In this document: positions 43,097 to 51,658 of the stretch, piece by piece
Numbering within the stretch: the first letter of the stretch is position 1
How the letters are laid out: every line of letters starts with the position of its first letter
Assembly: GCF_988242995.1 (NCBI RefSeq)
Contig: NZ_OZ547043.1
Length of the DNA: 64,000 bases
Reading direction: 5' to 3' (one strand)
Program-made: the position numbers and the translations under genes
The notes under the pieces: generated by a model
The model's input: only the letters and a program-made list of their open reading frames with translations
Databases searched by the model: none
Told to the model about the DNA's origin: nothing

Positions 43097-43390
43097 TTAT
43101 TGATTATCAACAGGAAGAAAAGAAACCAAACGCACCCCATCCAAATCCACCGGAATACGTCTATTTTCACCCCAGGTCTGAAATTCAAAACCCGACTCGG
43201 TATTGGTCGCCCAGGCCATTACCACATTTCCGCAACCTGCCAGTTGAGAGATTTGCTGCCAGATCATCTCCCGAATACGTTTGGACGTATCTCCGACATA
43301 AACACCGGCACGCACTTCCAGGAGCCAGATCTCGAGCCGTCCACGTAAGCGCGGAGAGACATTTTCTGTAACAACGACGACCATACTCAT
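43097..43390 (-). CDS. cas2: CRISPR adaptation endoribonuclease Cas2
   Basis: 97-aa [22 protein letters not shown]... similar to E. coli Cas2 (YgbF). Confidence 0.95.
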
Positions 43391-44310
43391 CCGCCGCGTC
43401 CCCGGTGACCGCTATCGCCCAGCGTTTCAGGTTCAGGGATGGCAGGCGGTAACATATCCGGCGCGGGTTGTGGTGGTTCAATTTCACCTGCGGCAAGCAC
43501 TTCCTCGATTAACGGAATTAATTTGCCCGTTAACTTACTGCTACGGAAAATATCACGACAGGCCAACCTGACTTCTTTATCTGGTTCTGCGGGTTGCCTC
43601 GCTGCTATTTCAAATGCCTTTGGCACAACCGAATCAAATTTAATGATATCGGCTATGTCATAAACAAATGAAAGCGGTTTGCCACTATGGATAAATCCAA
43701 TAGCGGGCGCATATCCCGCGGCTAATACTGCCGCTTCAGAAATACCGTACAGACATGATGTGGCAGCACTGATGCAGCGATTCACAACATCGCCTTTTTC
43801 CCAGTCTTTAGGATCGTATTTGCGACCATTCCATTTCACACCATATTGTTTCGCCAGTAATGCATACGTCTGGCGAACGCGGGATCCCTCAATTCCACGT
43901 AGCTGCTCCACTGAACGGCGAGCTGGCGGTGGCTCACGAAAACGTAATTCATACATTTTACGCACCACCTTCAGGCGTAGATCTTCCGTTAAAGCCAGCT
44001 TTGCCTGGTAGAGTAATTTATCTGCCCGCGCCCCTCCGGGTTGTCCGGAAGAGTAAACGCGAACGCCCGCTTCACCGACCCAGACCAGCAGTGTTCCCAC
44101 CGTGGCGGCCAGATGCACCGCCGCGTGGGAAACTCTCGTTCCCGGTTCGAGCATAATGCAGGCGACCGATCCCACCGGAATGTGCGTGCGGATCCCGGTT
44201 TTGTCGATCAACACGAAAGCGCCGTCCAGTACGTCGATTTGACCGTACTGGAGGAAGATCATAGAGGTGCGATCTTTTAACGGGATCGGACTCAGTGGTA
44301 CAAACGTCAC
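43387..44310 (-). CDS. cas1: CRISPR integrase Cas1
   Basis: 307-aa ORF similar to E. coli Cas1 (YgbT); 4-bp overlap with cas2. Confidence 0.95.
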
Positions 44311-44957
44311 GCCTCTGCTCCGGGTTTGATCAGCATCAGACCACAGCCGAACGCGCGGCTTTTGCCATACCCCTGACTGAGACGTTGCAGAAATAACCCG
44401 GGATCGGTGACCGTAAGCATCCCCGTATAATCCACGCTACTGAACTGGATCAGTTGCCGGGAGTTTTCCCGCCACAGTTGCTGTTGTCGGTAGGCATCAA
44501 CCGAGGTATCCAGCAGTGTAAAACCGCTTCTCTCCCCCTGCGCTGCCAGCCAGTCCAGCGCCGCCTGTTGTTGATGCAACCAGACATCACTTCCTTCCGC
44601 CTGCCCCCTCACCTGCCGTTTCGCCTCCATCAGCAGATCGTGGCGCTTGCCCGCTTTACAGATTGTTGGATTCGCCCGCAGGTTGAAACAAAGTTGTTGT
44701 CCGGTACGCAGCTCGGGCACAAATGACCGGCATTCGATGGTGAACGTTTCACTTTCCGCCGGGCGTTCCTGCGACAGGACAAAAAAGCGAAACGCCCCCT
44801 GGAGTTCTTCCCGACGATAAAGAAATTGCCTTTCTTTGCCGCCAGGAAAAAGATCCCACAGCCACTGATGCATTACATATTCACCGCGATCCACCAAATG
44901 CAGCAACTGCGCAGGCGAAAGCTGGCCGGTATGTAAGGTTATTCTTGAGAGGTACAT
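44307..44957 (-). CDS. cas6e: Cas6e (CasE/Cse3) crRNA endoribonuclease
   Basis: ORF 44307..45095; start taken at ATG 44957 (MYLSRITLHTGQ...) behind AAGGAGG; position between cas5 and cas1. Confidence 0.85.
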   Translation of the reverse strand: MYLSRITLHTGQLSPAQLLHLVDRGEYVMHQWLWDLFPGGKERQFLYRREELQGAFRFFVLSQERPAESETFTIECRSFVPELRTGQQLCFNLRANPTICKAGKRHDLLMEAKRQVRGQAEGSDVWLHQQQAALDWLAAQGERSGFTLLDTSVDAYRQQQLWRENSRQLIQFSSVDYTGMLTVTDPGLFLQRLSQGYGKSRAFGCGLMLIKPGAEA

Positions 44958-48867: not shown

Positions 48868-48958
48868 CCTCTCGTAAAAAAGACCATCCTAGGTCGGTTG
48901 TCCATCATTCCATCCTTTTCGGTGTATCAACTATTCAGAGAGCCCTGTCGCAGGCATC

Positions 48959-51658
48959 TCAACCAACCTTGCCAGTCAATCCTTCCATAGCCGAATACCC
49001 GCAACTTTCGTCATCGGTAACTAAAATCACGTTTGCCATCTCCGGATCTTTCCGCTGTTCAATGCACCACTGCCTGAACGCTTCCCCTTCCAGTAAAGAA
49101 AACTCATCCCGATGTTTTTTCCACCAGCTTCGACGCACTCTGACAACGCTCATTTCCCATGCGTGAGCACCGTTGGCATAAGGCTTCACCACACTGGCAA
49201 TACAGGTAGCCAGCCACAGGGAAACAGACTCCTCCGCCAGACGTGTCGACAGCTTTTCCGGAAGGTAATCGTTGATATTGGCGGCATAGCCAGGCCTGAA
49301 GTTCAGCACAAACTTTTTAGCCATTGCGCGATCGCAGTAATATTTGCCCACTTGCTCCTGCTCGCTGCGGGCAAATCCTTCCGGCATTACCACGTCCTCA
49401 CCGTAGACTGATTCAATAAGAAGGCGGGCTGCGTGTGGCATTTGAATAGCGCCTTGCTCACGCAGTACACGCTGCGTCAGCCAGATTCGTCCATGATCGG
49501 GATAGACATATGCACTGTTACGCATGGCACTGCCGAACCATTCGTCACCTGGAGCGTCGTCCCAGACGGGGGCCAGAATCAGCAATTCAGGAGGGGAACG
49601 CTCGTCTTTTCCGTCACGCTTTAACTGACCATTAATATCGCGGATATGCCGCTGTAATCGCCCCGCTCGCTGGATCAGCAAATCAACAGGGGCCAGGTCG
49701 GAAATCATTTCGTCCATATCGCAATCAACGCTCGACTCTAAGACCTGAGTACAAATGAGGACTTTTCCGGCACGCTGTGAGCTATCTTCTTTACCGAAGC
49801 GTGCCAGCGTTTCCGTTTCAATTCGCTGGCGATCGCTAAAAGCAAAGCGGCTATGAAACAGAGAAAGGCTGGAAGCAGGAATGACGCCGCGGGCAAGCAA
49901 CTGACGATAAACCTTAATAGCGTCATCGACAGAATTCCGGATCCAGGCGATGCATTTCCCCTGACTTACTGCCGATTCGATACGCGCAATACATTCTTGT
50001 TCGCTATGAAGCCAACCCACGCTCACGCTACGCTCAACGTCTTTGCGCGTCGCTACCCGGTGTGAATGCACATCGGATTTCGTAACGTGCGTCAGCCAGG
50101 GGTAATCATCCTTTTCCAGGAACGGAGCTTCTTGCTGGCCCTCTGTACCACGCGCAAAGGCAGCAACGAGTTTGTCGCACTGCTGTTGAGATAACGTGGC
50201 AGAAAGCAAAATGACGCTGTTTCCGCCACGCGCCTGCCGCTCGATCAGCCCTTCAAGAATGCATGACATGTAAGCGTCACAGGCATGGATCTCATCAGCC
50301 AGCAGGATTTTGTTACTCAGTCCCAGAAGCCGCAGATTATTATGTTTGAACGGCATCACAGCCATCATCGCCTGATCCAGCGTGCCGACGCCAATTTCAG
50401 CCAGTAGCGCCTTCTTGTTACTGTCGGCAAACCAGGCCGCACATCCCTGACTGAACGTTTGTTCATCCGGTTCTTCTGACCCGACTAAATCACCGGACCA
50501 GAGTGATTCATTAAAGCGGTCCATTAATGTTCGGGCACTGTGTGCCAGCACCAGGCTGGGGCGGGACTCTGGCGAATAGAAAGCAAGCCAGGTTTTGACC
50601 AGTCGATCGTACATGGCATTGGCCGTTGCCATTGTTGGCAGGCCAAAAAACAAACCCTGCGCTTTACCCGCAGCCATCAACCTGTGCGCCAGGATAAGCG
50701 CCGCTTCCGTTTTACCTGCGCCAGTCACATCTTCCAGAATAAATAACTGTGGCCCTGGCTGGCTGATATCCAGATCCAGCACCTTTTGCTGTAACGGTGT
50801 CGGATTCTCAATAAAAGGAAACAGCGTATTAATTCCGGTGAAAGGCGCGACTTTTGCTTTTAGAGGAAAGACGGTTAAGGCGTTTTGAGCCTGAACTAAA
50901 GTTTTCTGCCAGTAACCTTTATTATCCATTGGGTGTGCGACGCGTGGAAAAAATCGCGTTGACGAACCCGTCCAGTCTGCGAGCACGACGGTTGCAGAGA
51001 TATACCAGGAAAGGTGTTTTATAAGTTCAATGCCCTCATCATCATCCCAGAATGCGGGGATCTCTATGAGCGGAAACAGTGGTTTGATTTCAAGAAGAAA
51101 ATCTCGCGCGGCAGCTTTGTCTTCAGGCAGAAAATTATCCAGTTCATCAATACGGTCAGGCGGGCGACCATGATGCCCGGTAGTTATGGGCATCCACATC
51201 GCTATTACACGTGTAAGTTTGCGGGGAGAGAGTGAAGAGGAAGGAAGTAACTCCTGACATTCACTTAAATAATGATGCCACAACCAGTAGCCCAGCGTTG
51301 AATGAGAGATTTTTTCGTAATTTTTTCTAGCACCTTCCGGAACCCTGAGTTTCGGGTGCAGGTAAAGTTGCTGAAATGAGCGGGCAAATTTACCAGTATC
51401 GTGCCAGCACAACAACCAGGCGAAAAATTGAGCCGCCTGTTCCTTGTCAGAAATCTCTAATTGACGAAAATAGTCAGCCAGTCCGAAGCAATTGCTTTTA
51501 ACCATTAAATAGCCCATCGCGGCTACATCCAGCGAATGCCAGCAAAGAAGGTGATAGTCGTCGCCCCCGTCTTTCTCGCCGCGTCGGGTTTTTCCCCAGA
51601 AATCAAAAAAAGTCACAATATTTTTATCCTTCAGTAAACTTAAAGGATATTTACGCAT
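48959..51658 (-). CDS. cas3: Cas3 nuclease/helicase (HD domain + SF2 helicase)
   Basis: 899-aa ORF; N-terminal HD region (HSLDVA, WHDTGK), helicase motifs GAGKTEAA and DEIH. Confidence 0.93.
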   Translation of the reverse strand: MRKYPLSLLKDKNIVTFFDFWGKTRRGEKDGGDDYHLLCWHSLDVAAMGYLMVKSNCFGLADYFRQLEISDKEQAAQFFAWLLCWHDTGKFARSFQQLYLHPKLRVPEGARKNYEKISHSTLGYWLWHHYLSECQELLPSSSLSPRKLTRVIAMWMPITTGHHGRPPDRIDELDNFLPEDKAAARDFLLEIKPLFPLIEIPAFWDDDEGIELIKHLSWYISATVVLADWTGSSTRFFPRVAHPMDNKGYWQKTLVQAQNALTVFPLKAKVAPFTGINTLFPFIENPTPLQQKVLDLDISQPGPQLFILEDVTGAGKTEAALILAHRLMAAGKAQGLFFGLPTMATANAMYDRLVKTWLAFYSPESRPSLVLAHSARTLMDRFNESLWSGDLVGSEEPDEQTFSQGCAAWFADSNKKALLAEIGVGTLDQAMMAVMPFKHNNLRLLGLSNKILLADEIHACDAYMSCILEGLIERQARGGNSVILLSATLSQQQCDKLVAAFARGTEGQQEAPFLEKDDYPWLTHVTKSDVHSHRVATRKDVERSVSVGWLHSEQECIARIESAVSQGKCIAWIRNSVDDAIKVYRQLLARGVIPASSLSLFHSRFAFSDRQRIETETLARFGKEDSSQRAGKVLICTQVLESSVDCDMDEMISDLAPVDLLIQRAGRLQRHIRDINGQLKRDGKDERSPPELLILAPVWDDAPGDEWFGSAMRNSAYVYPDHGRIWLTQRVLREQGAIQMPHAARLLIESVYGEDVVMPEGFARSEQEQVGKYYCDRAMAKKFVLNFRPGYAANINDYLPEKLSTRLAEESVSLWLATCIASVVKPYANGAHAWEMSVVRVRRSWWKKHRDEFSLLEGEAFRQWCIEQRKDPEMANVILVTDDESCGYSAMEGLTGKVG

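Follow-up and report, generated by a model that had tools for sequence, protein, structure and literature searches.

Positions 43097-51658 of the window (the whole 64,000-nucleotide stretch of contig NZ_OZ547043.1, assembly GCF_988242995.1, that was analysed) almost certainly hold a chromosomal E. coli type I-E CRISPR-Cas locus of the common 'E1' form (cas-EO, O157:H7/Salmonella-like), which is complete and, as judged from its sequence, apparently functional. The E. coli I-E families have been named cas-EO and cas-EK (Díez-Villaseñor 2013, PMC3737337) or cas-E1 and cas-E2 (Almendros 2014, PMC3903273), and a 2025 survey refers to the variants as 'var. B-8552' and 'var. K-12' (PMC12736100). The original prediction, made from the DNA letters without database searches, that the operon represents a second I-E cas allele family in E. 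coli was correct, and that family is already in print as cas-E1/cas-EO (PMC3903273, PMC3737337). We conclude that the operon is an intact copy of this known variant, an identification that no observation contradicts, that it does not depart from the known system and is not new, and that it stands out solely because the rarer version is the one carried by the laboratory strain K-12.

Gene content and integrity of the operon

Eight intact genes lie on the minus strand in the order cas3-cse1-cse2-cas7-cas5-cas6e-cas1-cas2. None of the eight ORFs contains an internal stop, and each of the eight proteins scored above the curated threshold of the matching type I-E NCBIfam model. The features of the locus and its upstream flank are as follows.

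48959..51658, minus strand: cas3, fused HD nuclease and SF2 helicase, 899 aa (NCBIfam cas3_core, cas3_HD)
47299..48861, minus strand: cse1/casA/cas8e, large Cascade subunit, predicted to read the PAM, 520 aa (TIGR02547, 609 bits, cut-off 70)
46766..47302, minus strand: cse2/casB/cas11e, small Cascade subunit, 178 aa (TIGR02548, 103.6 bits, cut-off 28.5)
45696..46751, minus strand: cas7e/casC, Cascade backbone subunit, 351 aa (TIGR01869, 448 bits, cut-off 178)
44939..45685, minus strand: cas5e/casD, 248 aa (TIGR01868, 158 bits, cut-off 69)
44307..44957, minus strand: cas6e/casE, pre-crRNA endoribonuclease, 216 aa (TIGR01907, 291 bits, cut-off 45)
43387..44310, minus strand: cas1e, spacer integrase, 307 aa, GTG start (TIGR03638, 381 bits, cut-off 216)
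43097..43390, minus strand: cas2e, 97 aa (TIGR01873, 128 bits, cut-off 33)
43001..43096, minus strand: AT-rich CRISPR leader, 96 nt, probably of the published L1/leader-A type
41813..43000, minus strand: CRISPR array (CRISPR2.1), 20 repeats (29-nt repeats, 32-nt spacers)
51659..51830, minus strand: very AT-rich region upstream of cas3, candidate promoter and silencing region
51853-52005: Hok/Gef gene, 50 aa (from correspondence with annotations of related strains and from sequence)

The signature genes of subtype I-E, cse1 (cas8e) and cse2 (cas11e), were both present, with TIGR02547 and TIGR02548 scores above their cut-offs, and cas7e, cas5e and cas6e were found in the canonical I-E order. The intergenic gaps, which range from -19 to 97 bp, hold no extra ORF between the cas genes, cas4 included. 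The ORFs are exactly as long as their RefSeq-annotated counterparts in strains MEW and ATCC 43894, and all eight gene lengths are identical to those in the variant table of the 2025 survey (2700/1563/537/1056/747/651/924/294 bp; PMC12736100). The canonical gene order and intact ORFs had been anticipated, and the ORFs were located exactly where they had been placed, on the minus strand. Likewise, the overlaps claimed for cse1/cse2 (4 bp), cas5/cas6e (19 bp) and cas1/cas2 (4 bp) were correct, and a fourth, the 4-bp GTGA overlap of cas6e/cas1, had been missed. The ATGA/GTGA overlaps, together with Shine-Dalgarno-like sequences, make it reasonable to infer that these genes may be translationally coupled.

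The start of cse1 was chosen after RefSeq; an alternative ATG at 48867 would give a protein of 522 aa. For cas6e, the start at 44957 is preceded by a Shine-Dalgarno sequence (AAGGAGG), and the ORF opening at 45095 is an upstream extension of cas6e that stems from mechanical ORF calling. Cas3 is a single polypeptide with an N-terminal HD nuclease (cas3_HD, 84 bits, cut-off 43, residues 38-233) and an SF2 helicase (cas3_core, 218 bits, cut-off 102, residues 306-676; both NCBIfam), in which the HD, GxGKT, DExH and SAT motifs are conserved: H86/D87 of the HD motif and Walker A K316 align with H74/D75 and K320 of the K-12 protein, and DEIH 455-458 and SAT 486-488 align with D452 and S483/T485. Similarly, Cas6e H30 aligns with the catalytic H20 of K-12, and Cas1 E141/H208/D218/D221 are identical to the K-12 residues.

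Divergence from the K-12 operon

Direct alignment to the MG1655 proteins (NC_000913.3) gave identities of 30.8% for Cas3, 24.5% for Cse1, 32.6% for Cas7, 35.0% for Cas5 and 31.2% for Cas6e, and global alignment of Cse2 gave 27% over only 48 paired residues. The strong divergence from K-12 that had been predicted for Cse1, Cas5 and Cas6e is thus real, their 24.5-35.0% identity being far from the >95% with which it would not have been compatible, and it is broader than was then stated because Cas3, Cse2 and Cas7 are equally divergent. Cas1 and Cas2 were 84.9% and 83.0% identical to K-12, in agreement with the earlier view that these two proteins are close to their K-12 counterparts, but 'close' needs qualifying, as the cas1-cas2-leader DNA is only ∼60-78%, mostly ∼72%, identical. 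At the DNA level, blastn detected no similarity to K-12 across cas3-cas6e; similarity starts abruptly at the cas1 start codon, and the flanks of the locus are 92-96% identical to K-12. The protein identities computed here essentially equal the percentages published for the comparison between variants (29, 23, 31, 32, 29, 84 and 86%; PMC12736100). Nothing spoke for the alternative that the operon is in fact of the K-12 type, and we rejected it, given 24-35% identity in six interference proteins and the lack of blastn similarity over cas3-cas6e.

The operon shares with the K-12 I-E system its subtype, gene order, chromosomal locus, repeat length of 29 nt, hairpin, and Cas3 and Cas6e catalytic motifs. 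In contrast, GC content is ∼50-55% here and 44-48% in K-12, the cas3-cse1 gap is 97 bp here and 414 bp in K-12, and hok is missing from K-12, which has kept only a sokX remnant. The locus differs from that of K-12, probably because the cas3-to-cas6e interference module was exchanged in K-12-like strains for a deeply divergent one (24-35% amino acid identity); Cas1-Cas2, the leader and the repeat stayed much closer (∼84% amino acid and ∼72% nucleotide identity, and one base different in the repeat).

Distribution and allelic variation of the E1 operon

Of 5426 complete E. coli genomes, 2419 carry the operon at a coverage of at least 80%, always on the chromosome, and 1114 carry the K-12 type. 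E1 is the majority variant in E. coli and the K-12 type a minority replacement; E1 is presumably also the older variant. The operon, leader and array of the window occupy the usual iap-cysH locus, and the iap, hok-sok and cysH flanks are common to the window and the E1 strains compared (MEW and ATCC 43894). The interval from cas3 to cysH contains a hok-sok module, as it does in the E1 variant (sok, Rfam RF01794, 111.7 bits, 51990-52147), and hok-sok has been reported absent only from E2 strains.

One alternative is that the operon represents a hitherto undescribed third family of I-E alleles, or was freshly acquired by this strain through horizontal transfer, and is not E1. In keeping with this idea, of the 2792 genomes in which the operon had any match, no more than 147 reach ≥99% identity, and Cse2 shares just 84% of its residues with its O157:H7 counterpart. 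However, the other seven proteins are 95-100% identical to those of O157:H7 ATCC 43894, the E1/EO reference strain (Cas3 95.1%, Cse1 96.7%, Cas7 100%), and the operon as a whole is 96% identical to it in nucleotide sequence and 99.4% identical to that of strain MEW, with which it shares a Cse1 protein that is 100% identical. The gene lengths match the published variant table, and the chromosomal site and hok-sok neighbor are the same as in known E1 strains. Moreover, the divergence is patchy in the manner of recombination within E1, which has been reported earlier: the allele is a mosaic of blocks of 99-100% and 93-97% identity, with the segment from the 5′ part of cas1 to cas7 at 99-100%, and cse2, which falls to 75% nucleotide identity, varies more than any other gene within E1. 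On the strength of the prevalence of the operon, the O157:H7 identities and the published gene lengths, we rejected the third-family or fresh-acquisition reading as highly improbable. Relative to other E. coli cas-E1/cas-EO loci, the window has the same gene order, exact gene lengths, type-A repeat, iap-cysH location and hok-sok module adjoining cas3; the differences are allelic only, and the set of spacers is particular to this strain.

The I-E cas operons of Salmonella enterica and Escherichia albertii group with E1 and not with the K-12 type (Almendros 2014, PMC3903273), and arrays with similar repeats were found in Salmonella records. Being orthologous loci of another species or genus, they should have diverged further than E1 alleles have within E. 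coli.

The CRISPR array, its leader and the targets of its spacers

The array at 41813-43000 consists of 20 copies of a 29-nt repeat, separated by 19 spacers of 32 nt, with a 61-nt period. Read in the direction of transcription, the repeat is GTGTTCCCCGCGCCAGCGGGGATAAACCG, which is type A; 19 of the 20 copies are identical, and the iap-proximal copy has one mismatch. A single position (GTG here, GAG in K-12) distinguishes the repeat from that of K-12. With the type-A ending ..GGGGAACAC, each of the 20 repeats has AACAC at its end, compared with AACTC in the leader-proximal repeats of K-12. The repeat RNA is predicted to form a hairpin with a 7-bp stem (-15.2 kcal/mol, z = -3.2). The AT-rich leader, which adjoins cas2, is ∼73-78% identical to the K-12 leader. 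This divergence of ∼25%, and the published finding that type-A repeats and leader accompany O157-type cas genes (PMC3903273, PMC3737337), suggest that it is the E1-linked L1/leader-A.

The possibility had also been raised that the family differs from K-12 in PAM or repeat properties, and such differences are already published: spacers are acquired with a CWT motif in the O157 type and a CTT motif in K-12, and the repeat and leader are type A in E1 and type T in K-12. The type-A repeats of the window agree with this. Spacer 5 matched 331 plasmids over 32 of 32 positions, and in the three plasmid records examined the protospacer lies beside a CAT (= 5′-ATG) motif. The target gene, which some records annotate as ArdC-like, is carried by conjugative or mobilizable plasmids that are widespread. 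Both protospacers found have CAT, a motif seldom seen for the K-12 type, although these represent two spacers only and one match extends to just 27 of 32 positions. Apart from this one perfect and one imperfect match, the spacers (17 of 19) had no match in the plasmid and phage collections.

Proposed mechanism and regulation

Homology to K-12 and other I-E systems suggests how the operon would be expressed, its complex assembled and its activity exerted. The leader adjoining cas2 would drive transcription of the array, and Cas6e would cleave each repeat at the base of the hairpin to give 61-nt crRNAs, on which Cse1, Cse2, Cas7, Cas5 and Cas6e would assemble as Cascade. Reading of a 5′-AWG PAM by Cse1 would lead to an R-loop and to recruitment of Cas3, whose HD nuclease and helicase would degrade the target; new 32/33-nt spacers would be inserted by Cas1-Cas2 at the leader-proximal repeat. 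For the stoichiometry of Cascade and the reading of the PAM by Cse1, the extrapolation spans ∼25% sequence identity, and both may hold in this form.

It is quite possible, although we give it somewhat less than an even chance, that the operon is intact in sequence yet silenced and largely idle, repressed by H-NS and kept by drift or occasional use, and that it therefore provides no effective immunity under ordinary conditions. The I-E system of E. coli K-12 has been described as transcriptionally silent and has been reported to be repressed by H-NS, and E. coli arrays are reported to be slow to change and seldom to match phages; 17 of the 19 spacers here lacked a match in the phage or plasmid collections. 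Furthermore, the ∼170 bp 5′ of cas3 (51659..51830) are extremely AT-rich, as is typical of H-NS targets (GC 0.38 in the 51500-51999 bin), and a simple scan for the sigma-70 consensus, which gave 5 sites versus 9.9 expected, found nothing convincing upstream of cas3. In contrast, all eight ORFs are full length with intact catalytic residues, the repeats are nearly uniform, spacer 5 perfectly matches currently circulating plasmids and has the correct PAM in the records examined, and the E1 Cas1-Cas2 pair of O157:H7 has been reported to acquire spacers when supplied from a plasmid, all of which argue against an idle system. Silencing of this kind concerns the regulation of the locus and not its identity, and is compatible with the window holding an intact E1 operon.

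Relation to the K-12 model

With a Cascade only ∼25-35% identical to that of K-12, and with no E1-type Cascade structure present in the PDB, the E1 machinery of Cascade and Cas3 found in most E. coli strains could work in ways materially unlike the K-12 model, in its interference PAM repertoire, priming, regulation or anti-CRISPR sensitivity; we offer this suggestion tentatively and consider it rather unlikely. Among solved structures, the nearest to Cse1 is K-12 CasA, at only E=1.8e-15, and structures of the K-12-type Cascade are available (PDB 4QYZ, 4TVX, 5H9F). Regulation could differ because the cas3-cse1 gap, at 97 bp instead of 414 bp, leaves no K-12-type Pcas region. Such a difference would extend known work and would not be a discovery from this window, because Almendros et al. 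raised it as an open caveat in 2014 (PMC3903273).

The window contributes one further intact example of E1, together with a minor piece of support: a perfect protospacer, flanked by ATG, in a plasmid gene that some records annotate as ArdC-like. In E. coli, the K-12 I-E system of the textbooks is a minority form, and structural, PAM, regulatory and anti-CRISPR results obtained with it may not carry over to the E1 system of most strains, including O157:H7, a point that has been in the literature since 2013-2014.

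An intact type I-E cas operon at the CRISPR-I site

Eight adjoining ORFs on the minus strand, spanning 43097-51658 and free of internal stop codons, make up the cas operon, and each of the eight Cas proteins exceeds the curated cut-off of its own type I-E NCBIfam model, which bears out the original prediction of intact genes in canonical order. The locus is flanked by iap on one side and by a hok-sok module (51853-52147, minus strand), followed by cysH, cysI and cysJ, on the other, which is the usual position of CRISPR-I in E. coli.

Features of the cas locus (window positions), with protein identity to the K-12 counterpart
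40694-41731: iap
41813-43000: CRISPR array, 20 repeats of 29 nt and 19 spacers of 32 nt
43001-43096: leader, 96 nt, AT-rich, directly downstream of cas2
43097-43390, minus strand: cas2, 97 aa; 83.0% identity
43387-44310, minus strand: cas1, 307 aa, GTG start; 84.9% identity
44307-44957, minus strand: cas6e, 216 aa; 31.2% identity
44939-45685, minus strand: cas5, 248 aa; 35.0% identity
45696-46751, minus strand: cas7, 351 aa; 32.6% identity
46766-47302, minus strand: cse2, 178 aa; 27% identity, with only 48 residues paired
47299-48861, minus strand: cse1, 520 aa (522 aa if the upstream ATG at 48867 is used); 24.5% identity
48959-51658, minus strand: cas3, 899 aa; 30.8% identity
51853-52005, minus strand: Hok/Gef ORF, 50 aa, start codon at 52005
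51990-52147, minus strand: sok RNA (Rfam RF01794, 111.7 bits)

The gene overlaps noted previously were correct (cse1/cse2, 4 bp; cas5/cas6e, 19 bp; cas1/cas2, 4 bp), and cas6e and cas1 also overlap by 4 bp; the other intergenic gaps are 10, 14 and 97 bp. These overlaps, together with Shine-Dalgarno-like sequences 5′ of cse1, cse2, cas7 and cas6e, make translational coupling of the cas genes plausible. Apart from sok, no Rfam family reached its gathering score in 41500-52400, and neither a second array nor a tRNA integration site was found in the window.

The interference genes show no detectable DNA similarity to K-12

Each Cas protein was aligned to its counterpart from K-12 MG1655 (NC_000913.3). 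Cas1 and Cas2, described in the original prediction as close to the K-12 proteins, are indeed so (84.9% and 83.0% identity). The divergence proposed for Cse1, Cas5 and Cas6e was also real (24.5, 35.0 and 31.2%), all three lying clearly below the >95% identity that would have refuted it, but it spans all six interference genes (cas3, cse1, cse2, cas7, cas5 and cas6e) rather than three. DNA comparison gave the same picture: the locus flanks are 92-96% identical to K-12, the stretch from cas3 through cas6e produced no blastn alignment to K-12, and the cas1-cas2-leader DNA is 60-78% (mostly ∼72%) identical, with the similarity changing at the cas1 start codon, to within a few bases. The GC content of the interference genes is 50-55%, compared with 44-48% in K-12. 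On the cas3 side, K-12 homology restarts at 52003, the 5′ end of hok, and K-12 retains only a sokX remnant in contrast to the hok-sok module of the window, which lies between cas3 and cysH.

The repeats also differ between the two loci. Nineteen of the array repeats are identical and the iap-proximal repeat has one mismatch; in the transcribed orientation the repeat reads GTGTTCCCCGCGCCAGCGGGGATAAACCG, and its RNA folds into the expected 7-bp hairpin. K-12 repeats form an identical hairpin, so the Cas6e and Cascade proteins of either system would be expected to accept repeat RNA of the other. All window repeats are type A (ending AACAC), whereas the leader-proximal repeats of K-12 are type T (ending AACTC). 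The iap-proximal terminal repeat of K-12 (3702-3730 of the K-12 locus sequence, compared with 41813-41841 of the window) ends AACAC and is thus type A, the remainder of that array being type T, which fits the published idea of a K-12-type module having entered an array that was already type A. Positions 41752-41812 of the window, lying between iap and the first unambiguous repeat, hold a repeat-like but strongly degenerate stretch (..GGGAGTTCTACCGCAGGGGCGGGGAATTC..) and then a sequence of spacer length.

The operon is an allele of the published E1 variant

A second family of type I-E cas alleles in E. coli, as originally proposed, is supported but already published. The K-12 form (cas-EK) is linked to a type-T repeat and leader and the O157:H7 form (cas-EO) to type A; in experiments, the K-12 Cas1-Cas2 pair acquired adjoining CTT, whereas the O157:H7 pair acquired CTT and CAT (CWT) (Díez-Villaseñor et al. 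2013, PMC3737337), so that the suggestion of different PAM or repeat properties is likewise in print. Almendros et al. (2014, PMC3903273) renamed the variants E2 (cas-EK) and E1 (cas-EO), each with its own leader (L2 or L1), and described E1 as the primary variant, clustering with Salmonella and E. albertii, E2 as having taken over from E1 in a minority of strains including K-12, and hok-sok as present in all strains except E2 carriers. Touchon and Rocha (2010, PMC2886076) had reported several incongruent Cas1 groups and the replacement of whole cas loci. A 2025 survey (PMC12736100) tabulates cas gene lengths identical to those of the window and gives identities of 29, 23, 31, 32, 29, 84 and 86% for Cas3, CasA, Cas7, Cas5, Cas6, Cas1 and Cas2, respectively. 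The window has type-A repeats, a hok-sok module and gene lengths in common with published E1, and all parts of the finding are already in the literature, among them the suggested differences in PAM and repeat.

To assess prevalence, the window operon was compared by megablast with 5,426 complete E. coli genomes, presence being defined as coverage of at least 80%. The operon was present in 2,419, every time on the chromosome, while the K-12 operon reached at least 80% coverage in 1,114, so the form in the window is the majority one in E. coli. The best match was strain MEW (99.4%), with O157:H7 strains at 96%. Identity to O157:H7 is patchy, at 99-100% from the 5′ part of cas1 to cas7 (43600-46600) and 93-97% in cas2, cse1 and cas3, and it drops to 75% at the nucleotide level in the 5′ half of cse2 (46900-47200). 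The patchwork matches recombination within the variant as reported earlier, and among the E1 subunits Cse2 seems to be the one that varies fastest or has recombined most. A new variant or a recent island was considered and rejected, given the number of genomes with the operon, the published gene lengths, the described recombination and the 95-100% identity of the proteins to those of O157:H7 ATCC 43894 (Cse2, 84%). Nothing in the locus points beyond the known E1 variant, of which it is an ordinary allele.

Predicted function and transcriptional layout

Cas3 retains the HD (H86/D87), Walker A (K316), DEIH (455-458) and SAT (486-488) motifs, Cas6e H30 aligns with K-12 H20, and Cas1 E141, H208, D218 and D221 are the same as in K-12. 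From these conserved catalytic residues we conclude that the locus probably encodes the standard type I-E pathway, in which Cas6e would process crRNA, Cascade would carry out surveillance with Cse1 as the PAM reader, Cas3 would degrade targets and Cas1-Cas2 would integrate spacers. K-12 Cse1 reportedly reads the PAM through a glycine loop, a lysine finger and a glutamine wedge (the 5H9F work), but the mapping of these residues onto the window Cse1 is unreliable at 24.5% identity. No structure of an E1-type Cse1 was found in the PDB, where the nearest entry is K-12 CasA (E = 1.8e-15).

In K-12, cas transcription follows a promoter and H-NS/LeuO architecture, and the Cascade operon promoter region lies in the 414-bp gap between cas3 and cse1. 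The corresponding gap in the window is only 97 bp (48862-48958), and the ∼170 bp upstream of cas3 (51659-51830), very AT-rich, are the only long AT-rich non-coding stretch. Because of these two features the K-12 architecture cannot simply be assumed, and the arrangement of the sequence suggests a transcriptional layout unlike that of K-12. A consensus promoter and terminator scan of 41700-52400 was uninformative on promoters, with five promoter-like sites compared with 9.9 in shuffled sequences and none usefully placed.

Spacer targets

When the complete array was searched against phages and plasmids, most hits were to other CRISPR arrays; true protospacers were isolated by masking the repeats with N for the plasmid search, the phage search being made with the unmasked array. 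Spacer 2 (41903-41934) matched fragments of P2-like Escherichia phages (vB_EcoM-569R10 and three others) at 27 of 32 positions with CAT present, and four of the mismatches fall at the seed end, next to the PAM; the target may be old or have escaped, or the partial match may be due to chance. Spacer 5 (42086-42117) matched at 32 of 32 positions in 331 PLSDB plasmid records, mostly of conjugative or mobilizable plasmids, from Klebsiella (165), Escherichia (69), Salmonella (38), Enterobacter (24) and other hosts. Annotations of its target gene vary between a zincin-like metallopeptidase domain protein, an ArdC-like protein and ‘TraC primase’, and in the three plasmid records read, CAT comes directly after the protospacer in the plus-strand orientation of the window, equivalent to a 5′-ATG PAM. 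Both protospacers fit CWT, two being too few for a statement about the PAM. If the system is expressed, spacer 5 would be expected to give immunity to plasmids that share a widespread backbone.
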